A stretch of 64,000 bases of DNA from Deltaproteobacteria bacterium. Lineage in GTDB: Bacteria > Desulfobacterota > Binatia > UBA9968. Position numbers and translations under genes: made by a program. Below the pieces are notes generated by a model. That model saw only the letters and a program-made list of their open reading frames with translations, searched no databases and was not told the origin of the DNA. The stretch is from positions 131 through 64,130 of the forward strand of contig JACQUW010000326.1 of the NCBI GenBank assembly GCA_016210115.1, in the 5' to 3' direction. Positions 3,412-15,104 of this stretch are shown here, one piece after another (within the stretch, counting starts at the first letter, position 1; each line of letters opens with the position of its first letter).

Positions 3412-3860
3412 ATGAGCAGAAGAGGGTTTGTTCTTATCTGGCTGCTGCTTGCTGCCTTTCTGCCTGCTGTTTCTTTAACAGGGGCGCAACAGCCCAAAAA
3501 AATCTGGCGCATCGGTTCTTTCCATGTGGGTTTGGACCACGTCCCTCCTTCGTTCCCTGCTCTTCGCGAGGCCTTAAAGGCTTTAGGATACGAGGAAGGA
3601 AAGAACATCCACCTCGACTGGCGCAATCTGCCCGATGAGGAAGCCGCGCGTCGCTCTTCTCCTATAACCACGACCTTGCCTTCGTCGGCCGAGCCGCCGC
3701 TCCTTATGTGGACAAGATCCTAAAGGGCACCAAGCCAGCGGAGCTTCCCGTGCAACAGCCAAGCAAGTTTGATTTGGTCATCAATCTCAAGACCGCCAAG
3801 CAGATCGGCCTGACGATTCCGCCGAATGTGCTGGCAAGAGCGGACAAGGTCATTAAGTGA
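3412..3860 (+). pseudogene. PF04392-type SBP gene with large internal deletion and frame change
   Basis: The N-terminal roughly 80 codons have a signal peptide plus RIGSFHVGLDHVPP..LKALGYEEGKNIHLDWRNLPDEEAARR. Near 3645 they run into the C-terminal roughly 70 codons in another frame: LFSYNHDLAFVGRAAAPYVDKILKGTKPAELPVQQPSKFDLVINLKTAKQIGLTIPPNVLARADKVIK, stop 3858-3860. About 200 codons of a normal family member are missing. Confidence 0.8.
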
Positions 3861-3960: not shown

Positions 3961-3979
3961 GAAATAATAGGTGACGTTT

Positions 3980-5068
3980 ATGCCAAAGAAAATTTTGATC
4001 GTGGATGACGAGCCGTTCAATCTCGACCTTCTGGAGCAGGAGCTTTGTGAGCAGGACTATGAAATCGAAAGGGCTAATGACGGCGTGGAGGCGCTGGAGA
4101 AGGTCCCGACTTTCGAGCCGGACGTCATCCTTCTCGACTATATGATGCCCAAGATGAACGGGCTCGAAGTGGTCCGGCGCCTGAAACAGGAGGAAAAATA
4201 CAGAGGGATCCCGGTGATTTTGCTGACTGCGAAGGCCTCTCAGGAAGACAAGATTAGAGGCCTCGATGCCGGTGCGGACGACTACGTGGTCAAGCCTTTC
4301 GACTCATTCGAGCTTCTTGCCCGGGTTCGCTCGATGCTGCGCATCAAACAGCTGCATGACTCATTGGATGAATGGAATAGGAATTTGAATGAGAAGGTAA
4401 ATCAGCAGGTAACCGAGATCGAGCGGATGGGCCGCCTCAAGCGCTACCTCTCTCCGCAGATCGCCGAGGTGATCCTGAAGAGCGACGACGATGCCCTTTT
4501 TAAGACTCACCGGCGCGAGATTACCGTGGTGTTTTTGGACCTGCGCGGTTTTACCGCATTCTCCGACAGCGCCGAGCCCGAAGAGGTCATCGACCTGCTC
4601 CGAAGCTATCACGCTGAGATGGGAACCCTGATCTTCAAGTTTGAAGGAACAGTGGAACATTTTGCCGGCGATGGGGTCATGGTCTTCTTTAACGACCCGA
4701 TTCCTTGCGATGACCACACGGAAAAGGCGGTCCGTATGGCTTCCGAGATGCGCGCGAGAGTCAAGGAGATCCGCGCCGGCTGGCTCAAGAAGGGTTATGA
4801 GCTCGATTTGGGGGTGGGCGTGGCGCGCGGCTATGCGACGCTCGGCAACATTGGGTTCGAAGGCCGAAGGGACTATGGGGCCGTGGGCAATGTGACTAAC
4901 CTGGCCGCGCGGCTCTGTGATGAGGCAAAAGGAGGCCAGATCCTCATCTCGCAGCGGGCCCTCGCCTCGGTCGAAGCATTGGTGGAGGTTGAGCCGATCG
5001 GCGAGCTTTCTTTAAAGGGATTTCACCGGGCTGTTCCGGCGTATAACGTGCTCGCGCTGAAATCGTAA
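3980..5068 (+). CDS. Response-regulator receiver domain fused to class III adenylate/guanylate cyclase domain
   Basis: The REC domain shows KILIVDDEP, DVILLDYMMPKMNG, LLTAK and DDYVVKPF. A coiled linker follows, then the cyclase domain (ITVVFLDLRGFTAFS, FAGDGVMVFFNDP, GNVTNLAARL). The ORF begins at GTG 3971; ATG 3980 is preferred. Confidence 0.9.
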   Translation: MPKKILIVDDEPFNLDLLEQELCEQDYEIERANDGVEALEKVPTFEPDVILLDYMMPKMNGLEVVRRLKQEEKYRGIPVILLTAKASQEDKIRGLDAGADDYVVKPFDSFELLARVRSMLRIKQLHDSLDEWNRNLNEKVNQQVTEIERMGRLKRYLSPQIAEVILKSDDDALFKTHRREITVVFLDLRGFTAFSDSAEPEEVIDLLRSYHAEMGTLIFKFEGTVEHFAGDGVMVFFNDPIPCDDHTEKAVRMASEMRARVKEIRAGWLKKGYELDLGVGVARGYATLGNIGFEGRRDYGAVGNVTNLAARLCDEAKGGQILISQRALASVEALVEVEPIGELSLKGFHRAVPAYNVLALKS

Positions 5069-5087: not shown

Positions 5088-5888
5088 TCAGAGGCGCAAG
5101 AAATCGCCGTCCTTCAAAACCATCAGCCGCTGGCCTTTGATCTTCTTCAGATCCCTAATGATCTCCTCACGATAGATCGGCTTCAGATGGGTTGCCAGAA
5201 ACGGAGTCGAGGGTCTTCCGAGCTTACCCGCCTCTTCGGCTAAGCTCTGAGGGGTGTGATGGCCGCTCTTGGTCGCGAGTTCCTGAAGCCGGTTAGGATA
5301 GGAGGTCTCCAGCACGACCGCGCAGAGATTCTTTTTGCGCCGGGCCAGAGACCAAATCTGTGCTGTGGGACCGGTGTCGCCGATGTGGAGCAGGGTCTTG
5401 CCTCGGTTAGTGATGAAAAACCCGGTGCTCGGAATGGAGTGATCCACTCGCACCGCGGTCACCACCGAATCGCCCACGGCCGCCGGTTCTTTTTCTCGTA
5501 GCGCGCCAAAGGACAGTATGGGCCTTGTCTGGTCCTCCCCGGTGATACGGGTAAAATCCGGCCATAGCGTATTGTTGAAAAGAGAGGCTTTTAAACCGGA
5601 GATGACGGGCCGGATTCCCCAGACGTGAATCGTAAACCCGTTGCCGTAGAGATTATCGGCGAGAGAAGCAAGCCCTAAGACATGATCCAAATGGCAATGA
5701 GTGATGAGAATGTTTTTGATCTTTCGCTGTTCGTTCAGGCTCAGCACAGAGGCCGCAGAACCCGCATCGATCAACAAAGAGCCGTTAACAAGATACGATG
5801 AAAGGTTCCGCCCCGGAAGTTGACCCCCGGCGCAACCGAGGACACGGAACTCTATGGTTGCATCCCTCATGCGTTTGCAGTAAATCAT
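5088..5888 (-). CDS. MBL-fold hydrolase resembling class II 3',5'-cyclic-nucleotide phosphodiesterase
   Basis: ILITHCHLDHVLGLASL matches the first nine positions of the class II PDE signature HxHLDH[LIVM]x[GS] as I recall it. The MBL-type layout is present (LIDAGS.., HxHxDH, later H and D). The gene is convergent with the cyclase gene. The start could be ATG 5888 or ATG 5870. Confidence 0.65.
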   Translation of the reverse strand: MIYCKRMRDATIEFRVLGCAGGQLPGRNLSSYLVNGSLLIDAGSAASVLSLNEQRKIKNILITHCHLDHVLGLASLADNLYGNGFTIHVWGIRPVISGLKASLFNNTLWPDFTRITGEDQTRPILSFGALREKEPAAVGDSVVTAVRVDHSIPSTGFFITNRGKTLLHIGDTGPTAQIWSLARRKKNLCAVVLETSYPNRLQELATKSGHHTPQSLAEEAGKLGRPSTPFLATHLKPIYREEIIRDLKKIKGQRLMVLKDGDFLRL

Positions 5889-5939: not shown

Positions 5940-6926
5940 ATGACCGCAGTGAAGTTCGCCCTGCTCTTATCGGCCATGCTCTTTTTTTCTTTGACGGCTG
6001 ATCGCGCCAGTCGGGCGGCGAATTCAAATCTACTCGTCGGGGTCCTGGTCCCAGAATACCTTCGTTCGGAGTCCCAGGTGATCAAGGGCCTGAAACAAGG
6101 GCTGGAAGAGGCGGGCTACAAAGAAAAGAAAAATCTCTTCATTGAGATGCGCAACGCCAAGGGCAACCGGGGGGCGTTAGATCCCCTGGCGCGGGAGTTG
6201 TTGAGCAGGAAAGTCGCCGCCATCCTCACCACCGGCACAAGGGCTACGCGAGCGGCCCTGTCGGCATCGGCAAACATACCAGTCGTTTTCTGCCATCCCG
6301 CGGACCCTGTCGCGCTGGGCCTTGTTAAAACGATGGAGCGGCCGGGAGGCAATGCGACCGGGGTGGCCGGCCTGGCTCTCCAGGCAACCCATAAGCGCGT
6401 GGAAGTGCTTCGGACGATTGTTCCCGGCACGCGCCGGGTGTTGATTTTTTACGACGCCAACAATCCCAATTCGCAGGAGAATTTCCGCATAGCTCAGACG
6501 GCGGCCAGCAAACAGGGGCTGCAGGTCTCGCCGCACCCGGTGAAGTCCACGGACGAATTGAAGGTTTCGATGAGCGCGCTTCAGGTTAATGACGGTGATG
6601 TTTTGTTTCAAGTATCCGATGACCTCGTGGATGGACAGGCGGCGTTTATTTTCGAAGAGGCACGAAAAAAGAAATTGCCCACTATTTTTAATGACGAAAT
6701 GTGGGCGATCAACGGCGCTATGCTGGCTTACGGCCCGAGCTATTTTGAAATGGGGCATCAAGCGGCCGGATTAGTGACTAAAATCTCGCGCGGGGAAAAG
6801 CCCGCGGCCCTGCCGGTGGAACAAGTCCGCAAGTTCGACCTGGTGATCAACTATCGAGCGGCCAGGGTAATCGGGCAGGATATTCCAAGAGCGTTAGTGA
6901 AAAAAGCCGACCGGGTTATCTGGTAA
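5940..6926 (+). CDS. Periplasmic solute-binding protein, ABC_sub_bind (PF04392-like) family
   Basis: GGAGG lies upstream of ATG 5940. The signal peptide is MTAVKFALLLSAMLFFSLTA. Family motifs are RPGGNATG and the C-terminus PVEQVRKFDLVINYRAARVIGQDIPRALVKKADRVI. It is a paralog of 75-1055. Confidence 0.85.
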   Translation: MTAVKFALLLSAMLFFSLTADRASRAANSNLLVGVLVPEYLRSESQVIKGLKQGLEEAGYKEKKNLFIEMRNAKGNRGALDPLARELLSRKVAAILTTGTRATRAALSASANIPVVFCHPADPVALGLVKTMERPGGNATGVAGLALQATHKRVEVLRTIVPGTRRVLIFYDANNPNSQENFRIAQTAASKQGLQVSPHPVKSTDELKVSMSALQVNDGDVLFQVSDDLVDGQAAFIFEEARKKKLPTIFNDEMWAINGAMLAYGPSYFEMGHQAAGLVTKISRGEKPAALPVEQVRKFDLVINYRAARVIGQDIPRALVKKADRVIW

Positions 6927-6935
6927 TCGTTTTTT

Positions 6936-9605
6936 ATGGCTGACTTAACCGACACCATCAAGGCCATCCCGCTATTTTCCGAACTGCCCCGCAGTGACGT
7001 CGCCAAGATTCTTGGAAAGCTGGAGGAGATCACCTTCACGGCCGGCACCAGGATTTTCTCCCAAGGCGATCCCGGCGACGCCTTCTATCTCATCCAGTCC
7101 GGTAGCGTCAGCGTCGTCCTGGAGGGTGGGGATGGCAGATCCGAAACTATCGCAGTCCTCGGCCCGCATCACTGGTTTGGCGAAATGGCGCTCCTGTCGG
7201 GCGAGCCTCGATCAGCGACGATCAGGGCCATCAAAGACACCACCGCCTGGAGGCTCAACCGCGACAACTGGGATGAACTTATCGAAGGCCATCCGGGCTG
7301 GCTATTTAAGTTTTGCGCTACGCTCAGCAAGAGGCTAACCCGCATAGAGCACCAATATTCGAAGGGAAGGGAAGCCTTTAACCTCCTGGCGGAGGAATAT
7401 TACTCTTCGCGACCCGCCGAGGAGCAGGCGTTTTTGCGCCGCGCCTCGTTGGTTCAAACGCTGGACGTCCGAGTCGTCAGCTTCCTCTTAAAGACTGACA
7501 AAGGCCAGGAATTCTTGAAGGCGCTCCAAAGCAGCCAACTGCCGATGGTGCGCACCCTGAACGACAGCCGATGCGAGCTCCAGCCTCTTTTCAAAGAATT
7601 CCTGATGGAAAAACTGGTCGTCTTGGAGGGGCCTTTTGCCAAAAGGCAGCTGCACGCCCAGTTGGCCACACTCTACGAATCATTGCAGACTTGGGATCAG
7701 GCTATTCAGCACTATCTGGAGGCTGAAGATTGGGGCGGCGCGTCTCATCTTCTCTTAGCGCACAGAGAGGAGCTTTTACAAAGCTCCGCCTCATTTCTGG
7801 AAAGCGCCCTGAACCGGATGCCGCCGGAGTGCATCTCCGCCGAGCTTCGCCTGGTTCACCTCAAGGCGGACCTGCAAATAAAACTCGGGAACCCCGAGGG
7901 CGCGATCCGAACGTACAAGGAAATCCTCGCTCAGAGAACTTCGGGCATCGTGGGAGCGGAATCGATAACTCGTTATCGCGACATGGCGAACGTCATGGCG
8001 CAAAAAAGGGACTATTCCCAGGCTCTCCAGTGCCTCCGCAGCGCTCTCCGCCTGACGGAGCAGGAAACCGCCAACCTCAGCTGGGAGGCGGCCAAGCCCT
8101 ACCGGGTAAACGGAGAAGCAGAGCCGCCGGTCTTCCAATCGGAAGAAAGCGCGCTGAAGCTGCAGGGACGGCAAACTTTGATCCCTCTGGTTTTCAATTG
8201 GGCGGGCAACGCCTCTCCGAGCAAGTGGTTTGGAGCGATATTGGGTCTTTTGGTTTGGGCCTACTTTTGGTTCTGGACACCGGAGATCGGTCTTGAACCC
8301 TATGCAACTAAACAGCTTGGCGTGCTCTGCCTGACATTGATCTATTGGGTCTTTTGGGTATTTCCGGATTACGGCGTGGCCCTCATTTTCGCGCTGACGC
8401 TCGTGCTCACGAAGCTGGCGCCCGTGGAGACGGTACTGGGTGGATTTGCAAGCACCACCTGGTTCATGACGCTGGGAGTTCTGGGACTGGGCGCGGCAAT
8501 CACGAGCTGCGGGCTTTTCTATCGTTTCTCGCTCCAGTTGGTGCGTTTTTTTCCTCTGACATACTATTGGCAAACGATCGCTCTCGGCATCATGGGCGTC
8601 GTGGTGATGGCCCTGATCCCGCAGCAGAGCGCCCGCACGGCCATCATCAGTCAAATGCTCCAAAATCTCTCCGAGAGTCTCAGCTATAAGACACCTTCGA
8701 AGGCATCCACAGGTCTCTTCGTTGCGAGTTTCCTGGGTCTTGGGCAGCTCGGTTTTCTCTTTCTGACGGGATCCACGACAAGCCTCATAGCCTGGGGATT
8801 GCTTCCCGCGGACGTCCGCGCGCAATTCACCTGGGGCTATTGGTTTCTCGCTGCTCTCCCTCCCACCTTAGTCGTTATCGTCTTTGTCCTCTTAGCGACA
8901 GTTTTTCTTTACCGCCCCGAGACACAGCCTCAGCTCTCCTACAAAATGGTTCAAAATCAGCTCGAGGTCCTTGGAGCGCTCTCTTCAAAGGAATGGATCA
9001 CGCTCGGCGCCCTTTTCTTCACTGTCGGCGGATGGCTGACCTTTTCCTACCACGGCATCGATGGCGCCTGGATCTCACTCATTGGATTCTGCGTTCTCAT
9101 CAACACGGGGGTCTTGGGGTGGGGGCTAGTGAAAAAAGCGATCGATTGGGAATTGCTGCTCTACATGGGCGCCACTTTGGGAATACCCGCCCTGCTGACG
9201 CGAGCGAAAATTGATGAGTGGCTTGTCGGGCTGCTCTCGCCTTTTATCCTTCCCTTTGTCGAATATCCCGCTGTTTCCTTTGTCATCATCTGCCTGATCA
9301 GCTACGCGTTTAAGCTGGTGTTCACAAGCTTTCTAACCGTTGTGACGCTCACCGTCGCCTTGCTTCCGCTCTCCATCGACATGGGGATCAGCCCCTGGAT
9401 CATGGCCATGCTCGTTCTCGTGGGATCGGAGGTCTGGTTTTTTCGGTTTCAAGTAGACTGGCACACGCTCGCTTATTCGACGACTGAAGGCAAAGGCTTC
9501 AGCTATCAGTTCATGAACTGGATCAATCCCGTTTACGCCGTGGCCTACATCCTGGCGCTCCTCGCGTCCATCCCTTATTGGAGATATTTGGGGCTGATGG
9601 GGTAA
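6936..9605 (+). CDS. Fusion protein: cyclic-nucleotide-binding domain, MalT-like helical/TPR region and multi-pass ion-transporter (DASS/ArsB-like) permease domain
   Basis: The N-terminus has a canonical cNMP-binding fold with the phosphate-binding cassette FGEMALLSGEPRSATIRA. The middle region resembles MalT/LuxR-type sensor TPRs (LATLYESLQTWDQAIQHYLEAEDWGGASHLLLAHREELL). The C-terminal roughly 460 aa are very hydrophobic with about 10-12 predicted helices and a two-half organisation reminiscent of DASS/IT-superfamily carriers. Confidence 0.85.
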   Translation: MADLTDTIKAIPLFSELPRSDVAKILGKLEEITFTAGTRIFSQGDPGDAFYLIQSGSVSVVLEGGDGRSETIAVLGPHHWFGEMALLSGEPRSATIRAIKDTTAWRLNRDNWDELIEGHPGWLFKFCATLSKRLTRIEHQYSKGREAFNLLAEEYYSSRPAEEQAFLRRASLVQTLDVRVVSFLLKTDKGQEFLKALQSSQLPMVRTLNDSRCELQPLFKEFLMEKLVVLEGPFAKRQLHAQLATLYESLQTWDQAIQHYLEAEDWGGASHLLLAHREELLQSSASFLESALNRMPPECISAELRLVHLKADLQIKLGNPEGAIRTYKEILAQRTSGIVGAESITRYRDMANVMAQKRDYSQALQCLRSALRLTEQETANLSWEAAKPYRVNGEAEPPVFQSEESALKLQGRQTLIPLVFNWAGNASPSKWFGAILGLLVWAYFWFWTPEIGLEPYATKQLGVLCLTLIYWVFWVFPDYGVALIFALTLVLTKLAPVETVLGGFASTTWFMTLGVLGLGAAITSCGLFYRFSLQLVRFFPLTYYWQTIALGIMGVVVMALIPQQSARTAIISQMLQNLSESLSYKTPSKASTGLFVASFLGLGQLGFLFLTGSTTSLIAWGLLPADVRAQFTWGYWFLAALPPTLVVIVFVLLATVFLYRPETQPQLSYKMVQNQLEVLGALSSKEWITLGALFFTVGGWLTFSYHGIDGAWISLIGFCVLINTGVLGWGLVKKAIDWELLLYMGATLGIPALLTRAKIDEWLVGLLSPFILPFVEYPAVSFVIICLISYAFKLVFTSFLTVVTLTVALLPLSIDMGISPWIMAMLVLVGSEVWFFRFQVDWHTLAYSTTEGKGFSYQFMNWINPVYAVAYILALLASIPYWRYLGLMG

Positions 9606-9638: not shown

Positions 9639-11186
9639 TCAGAGAGGGGCCTTGATGCCATACCGCTTCATCTTTTTAATGAAACCTTGCCGGCTTAAGC
9701 CCAACGCAGCCGCCGCCTGCTGCTGATTATTGCGACTCTGTTCCAGCGCCTCGAGCATCAGACGTTTTTCCAATTCAGCGACGGCCTCTTTCAACGGGCG
9801 TCTTGAGCTCGATATCGACGCGGTTGTCACGCCAAGTCTTCGGACACCCTCAGGTAAATCCGCAGGCGTAATCATTCTCCCAGCAACCGAGAGCACCAAC
9901 CGTTTCATCTCGTTCTCGAGTTCCCTCACATTCCCTGGCCAGGAATACCGCATGAGGGCGCTCATGGCTTCGTGCGTTAAATCCAGGGGTTCCCTGCCGG
10001 CTTCCCGACAGTAACTCGCGAGGAAATAGTTCGTCAAAAGCGGGATATCCTCTCTGATCTCACGAAGCGCCGGCATTTGGATGTGAATTACCTTCAAGCG
10101 ATAGTACAGATCTTCACGAAAAGCGCGCTGCTTGATCTCCGTTTCCAAATCCTTGTTAGTCGCCGATAGAACTCTGACATCCACAGGGATCGATTTCCTC
10201 CCGCCCACGTGCTCGATGATTCTCTCCTGCAAAACCCGCAGCAGCTTGGCTTGCGCTCCGAGACTAAGGTCGCCGACCTCGTCCAGAAACAATGTGCCTC
10301 CATGTGCTGCCTCGAACTTCCCCGTCCGTCTCTCGACGCCGGTTGCCACGCCCCTCTCGATGCCAAACAGCTCGCTTTCCACCAGCGCCTCCGGGAGAGC
10401 GGCGCAATTGAGAGCTACAAACGGCCCCCGGGCCCGCGGGCTCTTGTAGTGAATCGCCTTGGCCGCCAATTCCTTGCCCGTACCGCTCTCCCCGGTAATC
10501 AAGACGTTAACCGAACTGTTACTGATCTGATCGATCACTTTCAGAACCGCCTGGATTTTTTGGCTGGTGCCGATGATGTGTTCAGTAGAAAATCGCCCCT
10601 CAACCTCCTTCCAAAGGTGGCCGATTTGTTCCTGGAGCTGATCTCGATGCCGGCTCATCTCCTCCATCATCTGGGCCGTTTCGATAGCTACGGCGGCTTG
10701 CGCGGCTAGCGCTTTCAGAATCTCTTCGTCTTCATGGCTGAAAACTCCGGTCTTCTTATTTAAAACCTCAAAAGCCCCGATGATTTCCCCTTGATAGTCT
10801 CGCAGCGGGACCGCGAGAAGACTCCGCGTGCGGTAGCCGGTTCGCAGGTCGATCTCGCGATAAAAACGCGGGTCCTGGTGCGCGTCTTCCACGTTAATGG
10901 TCTCGCCCGTCGCGAGCACCGCTCCAGCAATGCCGAAGCGGGCTTCAAACCGCAGGATTCCCTCACTGCCGAGCGCTACCCTGGACGAAAGCTCGTTCTT
11001 TTCCCGATCGAGCAGAAAAAGACTCGCTCGATCCGCTTCCATCAAGTTGGTAGCCTCCTTGGCAATCAAGTCCAACAGAGCCGATAAGTCTCTTTCGGAA
11101 GACATTTTTTGGCAGATATTGAGAATAGGGAAGAGTTTTTCTGCCAAATGGCCTGGTTGGCTCGCAATTGGCTCTCTTGAATCCAT
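9639..11186 (-). CDS. Sigma-54-dependent transcriptional activator with N-terminal GAF domain (GAF, AAA+, Fis-type HTH)
   Basis: Walker A is GESGTGKE. The segment ESELFG..GGTLFLDEVGDL follows, with RVLSATN and a C-terminal HTH (NQQQAAAALGLSRQGFIKKMKRYGI). Start moved to ATG 11186, preceded by GGAGGGGG. The GAFTGA loop reads GVATGV. Confidence 0.9.
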   Translation of the reverse strand: MDSREPIASQPGHLAEKLFPILNICQKMSSERDLSALLDLIAKEATNLMEADRASLFLLDREKNELSSRVALGSEGILRFEARFGIAGAVLATGETINVEDAHQDPRFYREIDLRTGYRTRSLLAVPLRDYQGEIIGAFEVLNKKTGVFSHEDEEILKALAAQAAVAIETAQMMEEMSRHRDQLQEQIGHLWKEVEGRFSTEHIIGTSQKIQAVLKVIDQISNSSVNVLITGESGTGKELAAKAIHYKSPRARGPFVALNCAALPEALVESELFGIERGVATGVERRTGKFEAAHGGTLFLDEVGDLSLGAQAKLLRVLQERIIEHVGGRKSIPVDVRVLSATNKDLETEIKQRAFREDLYYRLKVIHIQMPALREIREDIPLLTNYFLASYCREAGREPLDLTHEAMSALMRYSWPGNVRELENEMKRLVLSVAGRMITPADLPEGVRRLGVTTASISSSRRPLKEAVAELEKRLMLEALEQSRNNQQQAAAALGLSRQGFIKKMKRYGIKAPL

Positions 11187-11273
11187 ACCCCCTCCCGTTT
11201 CTGAGCTTCCATACTCAGAGTTGGTGCCGAGGTGTTTAACAGGTAACGAGATGACCGTCAACAAAGTTCACAT

Positions 11274-11472: not shown

Positions 11473-11560
11473 CAAATAACTATGGCGGCCGCGAGTTGAG
11501 AGCACCAGGAAAAAGGACCGGCAATGCGTGCATCCGTTCAAAATAAAAGGAGGTAACATT

Positions 11561-12040
11561 ATGGCTAGGCAGATTCTGGTTGCGCTAAAACCTCAACAGC
11601 GACTGGATGAGATCATGCCTTATATTGAGGAGATCGTCCGCCCAGGGGAAAAAGTTATCTTTCTTATGCGTTACCCGGTGAAGCCATGGCTTTGGCTGCA
11701 GGACCACTGGGTGACTACGGAATCGATCACGCAGGCCATGCTGGCAGGGAAAATAATGATGGAAAGATACTCCTGGGAAATGCAAAAGACGTTGGCAGAG
11801 GAAAGAATTGCTCCAGCCCGGCGCGTTTTGCGCAGCAAGGGAGTCGACGTGGCTCCGGAGATTTATACATCCAGCTTAAAGACCGTGGTAGAAACTTATA
11901 CGCGGACCGGAGAAGTCCTGCTGCTGCAGGCGGATAGCGGCCTTCCACTAATGAGGTTCCTTCGCAGTGCGACTGCTTTCTTAGGATTCTTTAGAAAGGC
12001 GAGCTTTCCGCCGGTGCTTCTGCTCCGGCCGGGTCATTGA
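11561..12040 (+). CDS. Small hypothetical protein with weak universal-stress-protein-like pattern
   Basis: A strong RBS, AAAGGAGG, sits 6 nt before ATG 11561. The alternating beta/alpha pattern (ILVALK.., KVIFLMRY.., VLLLQA.., PPVLLLRP) is USP-like, but no ATP-binding G-x2-G-x9-G(S/T) motif is present. Confidence 0.55.
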   Translation: MARQILVALKPQQRLDEIMPYIEEIVRPGEKVIFLMRYPVKPWLWLQDHWVTTESITQAMLAGKIMMERYSWEMQKTLAEERIAPARRVLRSKGVDVAPEIYTSSLKTVVETYTRTGEVLLLQADSGLPLMRFLRSATAFLGFFRKASFPPVLLLRPGH

Positions 12041-12082: not shown

Positions 12083-13317
12083 TCAGGGCCTTTTTTTCAG
12101 CAGGAACTCAGCCTCGCCGTACTCTTCCAGCGCGAGCTTTTTGAGACCTGTTTTTTCATAGATCTCCCCCAGCAGAAAATGGAGCGTCGGTTCGTCAGGG
12201 TCCGCTCTGATTGTCTCCACCAGGGTCTCTCTGGCTTCGTAAAACAACCGATGCGAGATGAAGAGACTTCCCTTAAGAATGGCCGATGTGGTGCTCGTCA
12301 TGCCTTGAGCCTGGCTGAGCGAGGCGAGCTGCTGGTGAATCGGCCTGGCCTCTTCAGGTGACAACAGCGAAAACTGGCCGTCCGGGTTCCGGGGTAGAGC
12401 GACTGCAGCACCGCGGGCCTTTCCATCTTGCCGGAGACGCTGATTTGAACATCACCGCGATTCAGTTTCAGCTCCGTGACAACCGCAGTCCGGTTTCACA
12501 GGCGGAGAGCACCACGGTGTCAGCCTTCAAATGCAAAGAAAACATCTCGCGCGCGCTGAGCTGCCCGTTTTCCTCGCCTTCTCCCGCGAGAAGGAGACCG
12601 GAACCGAGGGGATCATCTTCTTTCAACTCGCCATGAACAGCAAAATGGAGAATCTCATAATTGGGGCTCATGGAGACAGCTTTGGGCTTTGTCGCCTCCT
12701 TCTGAAGATAAAGAGCGCTGTCAGGATAGGCTTCTTGAGGCGCATGCCGGGCGTTTGTCTGTTGAGAAAGGCGAGTTGGTCTTCTAGAAGCGACCGGGAT
12801 CGGGACAGGTGCTCAATAGCCTTTTGCGGCTCTCGCTGGCGCAGCAGGTCCGCGCCCAGTTCTCGAAGAAACAGGGCCTCCATGGTGTGCCAACGCCGGC
12901 GAACTGAATTTGTTTTGTGATCTCGATGCCTCGTTTGATCCATTCCCTCGCTTTGCCACGATCCCCCACAAACCTGTAGCTCAGCGTCAATTGGAGAATA
13001 GCTTGCGACTGGAGCCCGGGATGTTTTGTTTTTTCTGCCGCTTGCAGCGCTTTATCGCCATACGAAACGGCTTTCTGTAACTGGCCACTCATCCTGGCCG
13101 CGTAGGAGGCTTCGCGGTGGGCATTTGACGTCTCGACCCAGTCAGCGTTTTTTTCCGCCCGGAAGGCCCTGGCTTCCATGATTTGTAAAGCTTTCGCCGC
13201 CTCGCCCCGAGCTATGGCTTCACGAGTGGAGACGCCTGTGACGTCATCTTTGAGTTCTTCGACAGACGCTCCCGCAAACAGAAGCAGGGAAAGAACCAGG
13301 CCGGATAGGAACATCAT
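12083..13317 (-). pseudogene. Decayed TPR/CHAT-domain protein gene (multiple frame disruptions and deletions)
   Basis: The N-terminal frame (ATG 13317, AGGAGGG RBS) has a signal-like peptide plus TPR repeats. The reading frame then breaks at least three times (ORFs 12784-13374, 12668-12943, 12468-12671, 12083-12364). A CHAT signature is present (LQKEATKPKAVSMSPNYEILHFAVHG....VVLSACETG). The total length of about 410 codons is far below typical TPR-CHAT proteins. Confidence 0.6.
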
Positions 13318-13419
13318 CGTTGGGATCCCTCCTGCTCGCTTTTCGGATTGGCCTGACCAAGACGGAAAGCGCAATAAAGCGGACAGATGCCCCGCTCAGG
13401 TTAGTTTTAAAAAAGAATC

Positions 13420-14199
13420 TTATCCTGCATGTTGATAAAGTTTCTCCACCAAGGGTTGAGTCAATTCTCTAACCGGGCCGTCAAAAAAGATCCGGCCCTC
13501 TTTGAGACCGACGATCCGGTCCGCATACTCTCTGGTCAATTCCAGCGTGTGAAGGCTGACCAGGGCCGTGATTCCGTCCTCCAGGCAGATCCGCTTCAGG
13601 ATGTCCAGAATCACCCGCGACAGTTTAGGGTCGAGGCTGGAAACCGGCTCATCAGCTAGAATGATGGCCGGATCCTGCATCAGCGTCCGCGCAATCGCCA
13701 CTCTCTGCTGCTCTCCTCCGCTTAGCTCGTCGGCCCGCTTGTACGCATGATCCAAAAGCCCCACTCGCTTGAGATTGGCTAGAGCCCGGCCTTTCTCCTC
13801 ACGAGAGAAGCACTTGAGGCAGGTCCTGAAAACCGGCTGGTAACCCAGGCCGCCGGACAGGACATTTTCTATCACGGATAGACGCTTTACGATGTTGAAT
13901 TGTTGGAAAATCATGCCCACCTTGCGACGTAGATGGCGGAGTTCCCTCTGCTTCATCTTGAGGATATCCATTCTCGAACCGTTCGCCTCCAGATCGAAAA
14001 TGGCCTGCGGAATCAGGATCTCACCCGCCGTCGGCTCAACCAGGCGGTTGATGCAGCGTAGCAGCGTCGATTTTCCTGCGCCGCTCAACCCGATGATCCC
14101 GACGAATTCTCCCTGACGGACCTCGAGACTCACCCCTCGCAGGACATGGGTCGAAGCTCCGTAGGATTTATAAAGATCTTTAATTTCCAGAATCGTCAT
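13420..14199 (-). CDS. phnC: Phosphonate/phosphite ABC transporter ATP-binding protein
   Basis: Walker A is GLSGAGKST. The PhnC-typical N-terminus is LYKSYG..VLRGVSLEVRQGEFVGIIGLSGAGKSTLLRCINRLVEPTAGEI. The signature LSGGEQQRVAIAR and Walker B ILADEP are present. The start overlaps the phnD stop (ATGA). Confidence 0.9.
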   Translation of the reverse strand: MTILEIKDLYKSYGASTHVLRGVSLEVRQGEFVGIIGLSGAGKSTLLRCINRLVEPTAGEILIPQAIFDLEANGSRMDILKMKQRELRHLRRKVGMIFQQFNIVKRLSVIENVLSGGLGYQPVFRTCLKCFSREEKGRALANLKRVGLLDHAYKRADELSGGEQQRVAIARTLMQDPAIILADEPVSSLDPKLSRVILDILKRICLEDGITALVSLHTLELTREYADRIVGLKEGRIFFDGPVRELTQPLVEKLYQHAG

Positions 14200-15104
14200 G
14201 GTTTCTTTTTCTGCAATGCTTCCTTGAGATTGATTCCGGCGATCTTGAAAGCCTCCCGGACTGGATCGTAATCCCGGTCTGACGCCGGCATGAATCCATC
14301 GATCTGATAGAGATCTCTCAACATCTTTTTCCCCGCCGGCTCCTGGCCAAGGTCAAGGAAAAGGGCCTCTACTTTACGAACCAGTTCCGGGTCCGTCTTT
14401 TCACTTGCCACCAGATTATCCGCCGGAATCGGCTCGGAGTAGGCGATGGCTCGAATCTTCTGTTGCTCCGCGGGATCCTTCAAGTACTGGATCCAGGCTG
14501 CGTCTTTTCCGTCCGGGAAATTGGCGAAAGTCGCTCCGGCGTCTACCTTGCGATGAAGAACCGCCAGGACCGTGGCATCATGACCTCCTGAGTAAATGAC
14601 GTTCTTAAAGTCCTTTACCGGGTCGATGCCTTTTCCCTTGAACATCTTTCTGGGAAAGACATGGCCGGTCGTAGAGAGCGGGTCCCCAAAGGCAAAGGTC
14701 CGGTTGCGGAGGTCCTCCAGGGTCTTGATGGGACTATCGCTATGAGTGATAATGGCCGCGTAATAATAAGCGGATCCCTTCCGATGAGATTTCAGGATCA
14801 CCTTGACGCCCGCCTCGCTCTTGGCCAGAACATACGAGGCGGGACTAAGAAAAGCGATATCCAGTTTGCTGGAGCGAAGGGCCTCGACCACCCCGGTATA
14901 GTCCGTCGCGACGAAAGGTTGAACATCCATTCCGAGTTTTTTTTGCAGCAGGTCAACGATCGGTTGCGCATTTTGCGCAACCTGTTGTACGTTCTCCGAG
15001 GGGACGAACCCGATCCGGAGTATTCTTGTCGGGCCTTCCGACCTTCCGCACGCCGAGAACCAACACCACAGGATCATGGCTATCCAAAGACTCTTCTGGC
15101 TCAT
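14196..15104 (-). CDS. phnD: Phosphonate/phosphite ABC transporter substrate-binding protein
   Basis: The PhnD-family pattern is LRIGFVPSENVQQ..PIVDLLQKKLGMDVQPFVATDYTGVVEALRSSKLDIAFLSPASYV. The N-terminus is lipoprotein-like (WCWFSACG). Confidence 0.88.
   Translation of the reverse strand: MSQKSLWIAMILWCWFSACGRSEGPTRILRIGFVPSENVQQVAQNAQPIVDLLQKKLGMDVQPFVATDYTGVVEALRSSKLDIAFLSPASYVLAKSEAGVKVILKSHRKGSAYYYAAIITHSDSPIKTLEDLRNRTFAFGDPLSTTGHVFPRKMFKGKGIDPVKDFKNVIYSGGHDATVLAVLHRKVDAGATFANFPDGKDAAWIQYLKDPAEQQKIRAIAYSEPIPADNLVASEKTDPELVRKVEALFLDLGQEPAGKKMLRDLYQIDGFMPASDRDYDPVREAFKIAGINLKEALQKKKP

Follow-up and report, generated by a model that had tools for sequence, protein, structure and literature searches.

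A conserved fusion of a cyclic-nucleotide-binding domain, a STAND-type winged-helix/TPR arm and a DASS-type carrier in Binatia-type bacteria, with a putative role in nucleotide-gated transport

The fusion gene and its family

We have analyzed a gene of unusual composition in a stretch of 64,000 nucleotides (the window) from a Deltaproteobacteria bacterium of the GTDB lineage Desulfobacterota; Binatia; UBA9968 (assembly GCA_016210115.1, contig JACQUW010000326.1, positions 131 to 64,130 of the forward strand). The gene encodes a protein of 889 amino acids (aa) in which a cyclic-nucleotide-binding (CNB) domain is followed by a winged-helix domain (WHD) with a short TPR-like arm and by a membrane carrier domain of the DASS family. 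A preliminary description, made from the sequence alone, had proposed a protein of three parts, and domain searches confirm the open reading frame (ORF) and all of these parts. The features of the gene are listed below by window position.

6936..9605, + strand: whole CNB / WHD-TPR / DASS fusion gene, 889 aa, ATG start (domain searches and full-length colinear relatives)
6936..7340, + strand: CNB domain, residues 1-135 (PF00027, similarity to PKA RI-alpha)
7176-7229, + strand: phosphate-binding cassette F81-A98 (conserved cassette within the CNB domain)
7341..7631, + strand: long C-helix and MalT/STAND-type winged-helix domain, residues 136-232 (PF25873 WHD_MalT, PRK04841, Foldseek match 8bob)
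7632..8090, + strand: short TPR-like helical-repeat arm of about 7 helices, residues 233-385 (weak TPR matches, model, Foldseek match 6mfv)
8091..8210, + strand: variable linker to the first membrane helix, residues 386-425 (model confidence 28-42; 12% mean identity)
8211..9602, + strand: DASS (exchanger-branch) elevator carrier domain, residues 426-889 (PF00939, profile search, Foldseek)
8619..8636, + strand: hairpin-1 (HPin) tip, P562-Q-Q-S-A-R567 (alignment, conservation, helix break at 561-563 in the model)
9321..9341, + strand: hairpin-2 (HPout) tip, F796-T-S-F-L-T-V802 (alignment, V802 in 45 of 45 relatives, helix break at 796-797 in the model)

The ORF is not an artefact of assembly. 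An assembly chimera, or two genes joined by a sequencing error, had been considered in the preliminary description, with a break near 7400 or 8200. The GC content is 0.54-0.57 throughout the ORF, with no change of composition near either position. Assemblies from JGI, ENA, NCBI and Logan supply more than 100 independent full-length relatives with lengths of 880-897 aa. Among GTDB species representatives, 73 loci were found, most of them colinear with residues 1-889 and several of them on contigs longer than 1 Mb. The full-length colinear relatives in clusters and GTDB loci taken together are 64-72% identical. Nothing was found in favour of a chimera, and on the uniform composition and the many full-length relatives we dismiss this explanation as refuted.

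Relatives were also sought in a collection of 5.8 billion proteins, in which 746 clusters match at E ≤ 1e-5. The best 120 of the 746 clusters all have lengths of 880-897 aa, 100% query coverage and 64-70% identity, and they share the precomputed Pfam set PF00027, PF25873 and PF00939. The 73 GTDB loci are overwhelmingly from metagenome-assembled genomes labelled Candidatus Binatia or 'Deltaproteobacteria'. The fusion gene is real and is widely conserved in uncultured Binatia-type soil bacteria. In the distant representatives P0124, P0133, P0160, P0172 and P0173 the middle region is only 24-37% identical, but the succession of CNB domain, middle module and DASS domain is still present, which indicates that the architecture is old. 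No other output domain on the CNB-WHD-TPR module was found among the relatives searched; three shorter proteins with a CNB domain (P0134, P0137 and P0194), tried as candidates for an alternative output, appear to be incomplete family members from metagenomes. The possibility that the architecture was already common and annotated, also raised at the outset, is borne out for its frequency. As to annotation, the database names of the relatives are generic only ('SLC13 family permease', 'anion permease', 'anion transporter').

Residue conservation was scored over 45 relatives. The mean identity is highest in the carrier (79%), followed by the CNB domain (71%), the WHD/TPR region (about 50%) and the linker (12%).

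The three modules of the protein

The CNB domain matches the Pfam cNMP_binding family over residues 32-118 with an E value of 7.5e-26 (90.4 bits against a cut-off of 27.5). Its closest solved relative is PKA RI-alpha (E = 4e-26), followed by PKG, regulators of the CRP family and the CNB domains of the MloK1 and SthK channels. The phosphate-binding cassette, FGEMALLSGEPRSAT, is intact, as the preliminary description had read it, and its segment F81-G-E-M-A-L-L-S-G-E-P-R-S-A-T95 is essentially invariant among the 45 relatives. In the CNB fold the cassette Glu holds the ribose 2'-OH and the cassette Arg holds the cyclic phosphate, as in PKA and CRP; here E83 and R92 are identical in 45 of 45 relatives. 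The domain is predicted to be a normal-looking cyclic-nucleotide binder, with a base specificity that is not readable from the sequence.

The middle region had been likened to the helical sensor repeats of MalT-type regulators. The kinship with MalT holds, but the homologous part is a winged-helix domain with the first TPR repeats rather than sensor repeats only. The NCBIfam MalT profile (PRK04841) aligns residues 147-314 with MalT 251-419 at E = 2.6e-12, a score far below the family cut-off, and the precomputed Pfam assignment for the region is PF25873 (WHD_MalT). Matches to TPR_2, TPR_7, TPR_12 and TPR_14, each below threshold, are scattered over residues 240-375. A phmmer search of the middle region against PDB sequences gave matches at chance level only. 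A model of residues 136-400 alone is confident, with a predicted local distance difference test score (pLDDT) of 86.6, a predicted template-modelling score (pTM) of 0.79 and a pLDDT of about 90 in the TPR arm. The top PDB neighbour of this model in Foldseek is MalT (8bob), with a root-mean-square deviation (rmsd) of 2.4 Å over 156 columns at 22% identity. The next is a Pyrococcus STAND-TPR protein (6mfv, 239 columns), and the remainder are generic TPR proteins.

A HMMER search with residues 136-400 returned 680 representatives at E ≤ 1e-3. Outside the fusion family these relatives are mostly 1050-1130 aa long and are matched at about residues 250-490, and full-length STAND proteins are reached with E values down to about 1e-15. 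A sample of 40 of these relatives has Walker A and B motifs in its consensus and carries AAA_16/AAA_22 together with TPR_MalT (35 of 40) and BTAD (28 of 40); by these sequence features the sampled proteins are MalT/AfsR-type STAND regulators. In the fusion protein itself, Pfam and NCBIfam gave no match to a P-loop domain (AAA_16, AAA_22, NB-ARC) and none to a DNA-binding output (LuxR HTH or BTAD/Trans_reg_C). As modelled, the middle region consists of a STAND-type winged-helix domain with the first of the TPR-like repeats; the ATPase is absent. The N-terminal half as a whole has a CRP-like layout in which a STAND-type winged helix runs into about seven TPR-like helices. Gating by a ligand that binds the TPR part, which the preliminary description had suggested, is not supported: this part comprises only about 150 aa, and together with the WHD it is much less conserved than the CNB domain and the carrier. 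The linker that follows is modelled with a pLDDT of about 30 (28-42) and is the least conserved region among the relatives.

The carrier domain matches the Pfam family Na_sulph_symp (PF00939) over residues 430-887, covering profile positions 3-471 of 472, with E = 1.1e-33 (117.4 bits against a cut-off of 27). The related Pfam family CitMHS also matches. With the full-length model as query, Foldseek retrieves AtDiT1, AtDiT2.1, LaINDY, NaCT, NaS1, VcINDY, NaDC3, Drosophila INDY and yeast Pho90. The target-normalised TM-scores are 0.75-0.79 against AtDiT2.1, NaCT and VcINDY. AtDiT1 and AtDiT2.1 are among the top structural matches, and a search of PDB sequences with the family profile reaches only these two (E = 2.2e-20 for AtDiT1). 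The DASS-like fold claimed in the preliminary description is confirmed in this way; for the two-half organisation claimed with it, an hhalign comparison of the N-half with the C-half, made with shallow profiles, gave no significant similarity (E = 0.19), and the repeat is implied by the match of the modelled fold only.

The carrier domain was aligned with Escherichia coli CitT, TtdT and YbhI and with AtDiT1 and AtDiT2.1, eight sequences in all, and substrate-contact positions were inferred from the LaINDY paper (PMC7553777) and the alignment with CitT, TtdT and YbhI. In DASS carriers, Ser-Asn-Thr (SNT) motifs at the tips of two hairpins bind the carboxylates of the substrate (Sauer et al., PMC7553777). 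In the exchangers an Arg (R159 in LaINDY) and a His (H392) are permanent surrogates of Na1 and Na2, and a salt bridge between an arm-helix Arg and a Glu in transmembrane helix (TM) 7 is conserved in DASS (R122-E283 in LaINDY; PMC7553777). The exchanger pattern at hairpin-1 is P-S-N-[TS]-A-R-x-G-G, with PSVSAR in AtDiT1 and PSTTAR in AtDiT2.1. The protein described here reads P562-Q-Q-S-A-R567-T-A, so that S-N is replaced by Q-Q and the segment is one residue shorter after the Arg. At hairpin-2 the exchanger pattern is F-A-S-x-[ST/A]-[AG]-[HY] and the protein reads F796-T-S-F-L-T-V802, with the F and S kept. R530, E686, P562, A566, R567, F796, S798 and P820 are invariant in all eight aligned sequences; R530 and E686 correspond to the R122-E283 pair of LaINDY. 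R567, which aligns with the A-R of CitT, TtdT, YbhI and the two DiT proteins, and V802 are each found in 45 of 45 relatives. Both tips fall on helix breaks of the model, at 561-563 and 796-797.

SNT motifs are absent from the hairpin tips, as had been noticed at the start; the aligned positions read QQS and S-F-L and are conserved in the family. Of the two segments that had been proposed as the tips, IPQQSARTAII does lie at the tip of hairpin-1, but LPLSIDMGISP is the loop between TM10a and TM10b, with its family-wide Pro820. The carrier is a divergent member of the exchanger branch of DASS. To judge from the alignment, it retains the elevator machinery and the Arg that substitutes for Na1, its putative substrate-contact residues are altered on both tips, and the Na2 surrogate is lost. 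This combination suggests a carrier that works without Na+ on a non-standard substrate rather than a dead domain, because the functional exchangers AtDiT1 and AtDiT2.1 also lack SNT. That the carrier is the best conserved of the domains likewise argues for an active carrier. With its altered tips (QQS and S-F-L-T-V), the carrier probably transports something other than a standard di- or tricarboxylate.

The gene neighbourhood

Three genes next to the fusion gene, overlooked in the preliminary description, bear on its function as operon partners and provide the best hint at what it does.

3971..5068, + strand: class III nucleotidyl cyclase with a receiver (REC) domain (Pfam Response_reg and Guanylate_cyc)
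5088..5888, - strand: class II cyclic-nucleotide phosphodiesterase (PDE) of the metallo-beta-lactamase fold (PF02112, E = 3.5e-15; Lactamase_B_2)
5940..6926, + strand: exported solute-binding protein (SBP) of PF04392, ABC_sub_bind (Pfam E = 2.5e-56; signal-peptide-like N-termini)

The conservation of these partners was assessed in the 39 loci whose flanks extend for 3 kb or more on each side of the carrier gene; 56 loci have enough flank for counting an upstream SBP. A PDE lies within 3 kb in 23 of the 39 loci and a cyclase in 23, with either of them in 30 and both in 16. In these loci, which are related by descent, the density within 3 kb exceeds that in the flanks at 3-10 kb by a factor of 13.6 for cyclases, 55 for PDEs and 3.1 for PF04392 genes. 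In 11 loci the order cyclase, PDE, SBP and carrier is colinear on one strand. The annotated homologous loci have the same partners, with cyclases that differ in their input domains (HAMP, sCache, CHASE2 or REC). Cyclases with diverse sensor domains of their own place the nucleotide upstream of the carrier, which would make the carrier the effector. The pairs of residues at the two substrate-specifying positions of the cyclases, read in loci L005, L007 and L009-L075, are D/G (9), R/G (7), N/G (4), R/D (4), K/T (3), E/T (2) and K/A (1), and the pair in the window is H/G. The canonical adenylate-cyclase pair K/T is seen in only a few of the carrier-adjacent cyclases; the product could be cAMP, cGMP or a pyrimidine cyclic nucleotide monophosphate (cNMP).

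The SBP gene is the closest neighbour. Its stop codon lies 9 nucleotides (nt) before the ATG of the carrier in the window, and a GGAGG ribosome-binding site precedes the SBP gene while the carrier gene has none. In 43 of the 56 loci a PF04392 gene directly precedes the carrier gene on the same strand; the gap has a median of 12 nt and is at most 30 nt in 41 of 47 loci. Of the 39 well-flanked loci, 10 lack a PF04392 gene in this position. The closest PDB relatives of the SBP are 3lkv, 6hni and 3lft, and the ligands of solved PF04392 proteins are L-Trp, L-Tyr and L-Phe (PMC10443332). Six of the annotated loci contain the SBP, and in none of them was a cognate ABC permease of the usual type found beside it. 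No SBP-carrier fusion was seen among the relatives of 880-897 aa. Scans for promoters and terminators around the cluster gave counts no higher than in shuffled sequence.

A second, decayed PF04392 gene lies directly upstream of the REC-cyclase (3430-3857; ORF 3412-3723 and the frame that follows). Positions 3430-3624 match residues 4-69 of the SBP of locus L056 and positions 3654-3857, in another frame, match residues 258-325, which amounts to a deletion of about 190 codons and a frameshift. Locus L056 keeps the intact order SBP, REC-cyclase, carrier. PF04392 genes are very frequent in these genomes: 31 further matches occur in 577 kb of distal flank (loci L009-L081, 3-10 kb out), about one per 19 kb, and most of these have no obvious ABC partner in view.

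Seven of the well-flanked loci have no cyclase, PDE or SBP nearby. The HPin motif is kept in all five of these that were scored and the HPout motif in three of the five (two loci were unscored). Three of the seven (L047, L055 and L073) sit beside HemN/Meth_synt_2 genes, in a syntenic arrangement without PDE and SBP. The distant member L087 likewise has none of the three partners nearby, and the fragment upstream of the distant member L086 is not SBP-like, which suggests that the operon association is specific to the Binatia-type subfamily. Two genomes each hold a pair of paralogous fused carriers about 40 kb apart, namely L047/L048 (on one contig) and L055/L061. One copy of each pair has PDE and SBP upstream, while the other occupies the HemN/Meth_synt_2 position without them, and the hairpin-1 motif is unchanged where scored (L047, L055, L073) despite the missing partners.

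The wider surroundings contain housekeeping genes in an order common to the window locus and L002 (Phn-like ABC, S9 peptidase, aminotransferase, Ppx and TopA). Several other genes recur near the fused carrier. Genes for an ABC ATPase similar to PhnC and for a lipoprotein SBP similar to PhnD (Phosphonate-bd) recur just downstream of the carrier in the window (13420-15104, - strand), in L002 (Phn-like genes at 6000-6953 and 12660-14362), in L005 (4138-5076 and 16925-18639), in L046 and in L068. In L002 and L005 the BPD_transp_1 permease that matches them is found on the opposite side of the carrier, an arrangement that looks like an insertion of the carrier cluster into a Phn-like ABC operon. 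A regulator with GAF, sigma-54 activator and HTH_8 domains is convergent just downstream in the window (9639-11264, - strand) and in L003 (10746-12287), and similar genes occur in several other loci at distances of 3.6-7.8 kb. Cyclic nucleotides are possible ligands of GAF domains, and this regulator may respond to the same signal as a second effector. In the window (11528-12040, + strand), L001 (12973-13497) and L003 (12631-13155) the cluster is followed by a gene for a conserved protein of 170-174 aa without a Pfam assignment. A stand-alone CNB protein of about 180 aa adjoins an AI-2E_transport (PF01594) gene in L001 (18685-20372) and L003 (14170-15835), a few kb from the fused carrier, and this pair looks like a 'split' version of a sensor-transporter. 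In L019 (7776-9477) a CNB protein stands directly beside the fused carrier together with an unscanned ORF of 398 aa that may be AI-2E_transport.

Interpretation and comparison with known systems

Our preferred interpretation, to which we give a probability of about 0.55, is that the fusion protein is a cNMP-gated (probably cAMP-gated), Na+-independent carrier of the DASS exchanger branch that acts as the effector of a local cyclase/PDE module and is possibly fed by the SBP. Of the proposals made in the preliminary description, a cNMP-gated transporter is the one best supported by the neighbourhood counts. The sequence analysis itself shows the domains, their fold, the conserved residues and the conserved operon and neighbourhood. 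We infer nucleotide binding, the allosteric route and the sign of regulation, as well as the substrate and the role of the SBP, along the following lines. The sensor-linked class III cyclases next door (REC, HAMP, CHASE2 or sCache) would make the nucleotide, and the neighbouring metallo-beta-lactamase PDE would degrade it. The nucleotide would bind the N-terminal CNB domain through Glu83 and Arg92 of the cassette, and binding would reposition the long C-helix with the attached winged-helix/TPR arm, as in CRP and PKA. The N-terminus of DASS carriers is inside, as in the VcINDY structures, so the N-terminal fusion would be cytoplasmic. The arm, tethered to the first membrane helix by the linker of about 40 residues, would then dock on or leave the cytoplasmic face of the carrier, and docking or release would lock or free the elevator movement of the transport domain. 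The variable, low-confidence linker fits docking rather than a rigid mechanism. Transport is predicted to be independent of Na+, with Arg567 at the position where exchangers place the Na1 surrogate, and the exported PF04392 SBP, translationally coupled upstream, probably works with the carrier.

A more specific proposal is that the operon represents a further class of SBP-dependent secondary transporter, in which the exported SBP hands its ligand to the elevator carrier, with uptake gated post-translationally by cNMP through the CRP-like CNB/winged-helix switch, partly of STAND origin, and with the cyclase and PDE in the same operon. We regard this as tentative and less probable than not. A candidate ligand is an aromatic amino acid or a related monocarboxylate, since a pair of hairpin tips of which one is polar and the other hydrophobic would be suited to a monocarboxylate that bears a hydrophobic side chain. 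Weighing against such a partnership are the lack of an SBP-carrier fusion, the abundance of PF04392 genes in these genomes, the ability of SBPs to serve as sensors and the fact that about a fifth of the members have no SBP.

Several observations count against a cNMP-gated exchanger. The carrier scores 130.4 bits with the NCBIfam 'dass' profile TIGR00785, below its cut-off of 198.6. The His/Tyr of the exchanger Na2 site is Val in 45 of 45 relatives and the S-N of hairpin-1 is Q-Q, so that transport could be lost or changed. The full-length model has a pTM of 0.47 and its inter-domain arrangement is unreliable, so that contact between the regulatory module and the carrier is hypothetical. Most of the neighbouring cyclases are non-canonical at the two substrate-specifying positions, so that the nucleotide is best called a cNMP, probably cAMP. 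The partnerless loci, seven of 39 and likewise L087, also have to be set against this interpretation. Finally, since the loci are related by descent, the enrichment statistics overstate their independence and the P-values are inflated.

The same observations lend themselves to other explanations. The preliminary description named a transceptor as an alternative, and in a fuller form of this idea the DASS domain and the SBP would sense an external solute without net transport, the TPR arm would recruit a partner such as the cyclase, the PDE or the sigma-54 activator, and the CNB domain would provide feedback. Both hairpin tips deviate from all characterised DASS carriers, the His/Tyr of the Na2 site is lost, TPR modules commonly mediate protein-protein contacts, and SBPs stimulate signalling receptors as well as transporters (PMC10443332). 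The absence of SNT is nevertheless a weak argument, as functional exchangers (AtDiT1 and AtDiT2.1) deviate too, and the elevator hallmarks (the arm salt bridge, the hairpin Pro, Ala and Arg, and the Pro of TM10b) are invariant in what is the most conserved domain. The fusion protein has no output domain of its own, and the cyclases have varied sensor domains already. We consider a transceptor or scaffold unlikely. Somewhat less likely still is an ordinary carrier whose regulatory module answers to a ligand other than a cNMP, as in NtcA, CooA or the trypanosome PKA, or is purely structural or dimerising. CNB folds do bind other ligands, for example nucleosides in the trypanosomatid PKA (PMC10959531), the neighbouring cyclases are mostly non-canonical, and some family members have neither cyclase nor PDE beside them. 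Against this stand the invariant Glu and Arg of the cassette, the genuine cAMP/cGMP binders that are its closest relatives (E values of 1e-26) and the strong enrichment of cyclase and PDE next door.

Two further explanations are much less probable. The CRP-like CNB domain and winged helix might bind DNA, with the DASS domain as membrane anchor or sensor of a tethered transcription factor. Whole CRP-family chains do align with the N-terminal part of the full-length model over 227-246 columns (CNB domain, C-helix and winged helix), but with TM-scores of only 0.44-0.51 and an rmsd of 10-15 Å in Foldseek. The NCBIfam CRP matches are confined to the CNB part of the protein, and Pfam gave no match to HTH_Crp in it. 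The winged helix is of the MalT/STAND type and is followed by TPRs exactly as in STAND proteins; in MalT it is part of an oligomerisation module and not a DNA-binding domain. We hold this explanation to be very improbable. Least probable is an anti-phage system similar to Pycsar, in which a cyclase and a CNB membrane effector kill the infected cell. The layout of cyclase and CNB-membrane protein is the same, PADLOC matches the cyclase core to PycC (5e-21) and the CNB part to PycTIR (8e-12), the neighbouring PDEs have weak matches to the Apyc1 Pfam family, and the specificity residues of the cyclases are non-canonical. The PADLOC matches, however, reflect generic similarity at the domain level only, the cyclases are linked to sensors (REC, HAMP, CHASE2, sCache) and the effector is a complete, highly conserved carrier of 889 aa. 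We rejected a defence system on this generic similarity and on the genomic setting, which is a housekeeping synteny shared with L002 and inherited across the phylum and not a variable defence island.

No published description of a CNB-DASS fusion, or of a carrier with a CNB domain and a MalT-type module, was found in the literature, in agreement with the preliminary description. A 2023 review mentions CNB fusions (to MFS carriers) in passing and describes no regulatory function (PMC10710835). Post-translational regulation of bacterial secondary carriers through fused 'plug-and-play' sensors is a recognised phenomenon with very little characterisation so far; the present family is in the databases under generic names only, and cNMP control of a carrier has no known characterised precedent. 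The operon would be a self-contained set of writer (cyclase), eraser (PDE) and effector (carrier), which makes cNMP control of a carrier directly testable, and the family may offer a way to see the flux of a metabolite being throttled directly by a second messenger. Its ecological reach follows from its wide occurrence in Candidatus Binatia (Binatota), a phylum of methylotrophs and alkane degraders that has no cultured members and is found worldwide (PMC8262859).

Among known systems, the DASS exchangers (AtDiT1/AtDiT2.1, CitT/TtdT, LaINDY) are the closest relatives in sequence, and they have in common with the fusion carrier the elevator fold, the Arg substituting for Na1, the arm Arg-Glu pair and the Pro of TM10b. 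The identity is only about 20%, however, with QQS in place of SN[TS] at hairpin-1 and Val in place of the His/Tyr that serves as Na2 surrogate, and the exchangers named here have no cytoplasmic regulatory domain or partner SBP. Yeast Pho90, Pho87 and Pho91 likewise carry an N-terminal cytoplasmic sensor of small molecules on a carrier of the DASS fold, and Pho90 (8r33-8r35) is among the Foldseek matches. Their sensor is an SPX domain, which senses inositol pyrophosphates; they belong to another kingdom, transport another substrate and lack an operon of signal-making and signal-breaking enzymes. The MloK1 and SthK channels also join a CNB domain to a membrane transport protein, and their CNB domains match with E values of 1e-12 to 1e-10 and have the same PRSAT type of cassette. 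These are tetrameric ion channels with a C-terminal CNB domain attached through a C-linker, whereas the protein described here is a carrier, of a family whose members are typically dimeric, with an N-terminal CNB domain attached through the WHD-TPR arm and a flexible linker.

The MalT/STAND NTPases (AAA_16, WHD and TPR_MalT with BTAD or LuxR) are homologous in the winged helix and the first TPRs. The fusion protein has no P-loop NTPase, helical domain, long sensor or DNA-binding output, and the CNB domain stands in the place of the NTPase. It is not a member of the MalT/STAND or the CRP family and borrows the WHD-TPR part only; the STAND arm appears to have been reused here without its ATPase. 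For the SBP, the nearest parallels are the TRAP and TTT transporters and the proposed TAXI-GltS systems, in which the gene of an exported SBP is likewise tightly coupled to that of an elevator-type secondary carrier; the membrane components of TRAP share the DASS fold (PMC12344293). The fusion family differs from these in the SBP family (PF04392), in having no SBP-carrier fusion and in its members without an SBP. Before the TAXI-GltS proposal of 2025, TRAP and TTT were the only secondary carriers known to use SBPs (PMC12344293). That proposal rests on co-localisation, translational coupling and fusions, and elevator carriers were suggested to be predisposed to SBP use (PMC12344293). Co-localisation and coupling of SBP and carrier in the present family are the same kind of evidence, fusions excepted, and make a PF04392-DASS partnership a plausible and novel extension of the SBP-dependent carriers. 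If true, it would add to the list formed by TRAP, TTT and the proposed TAXI-GltS and would support the suggested predisposition of elevator carriers to SBP use.

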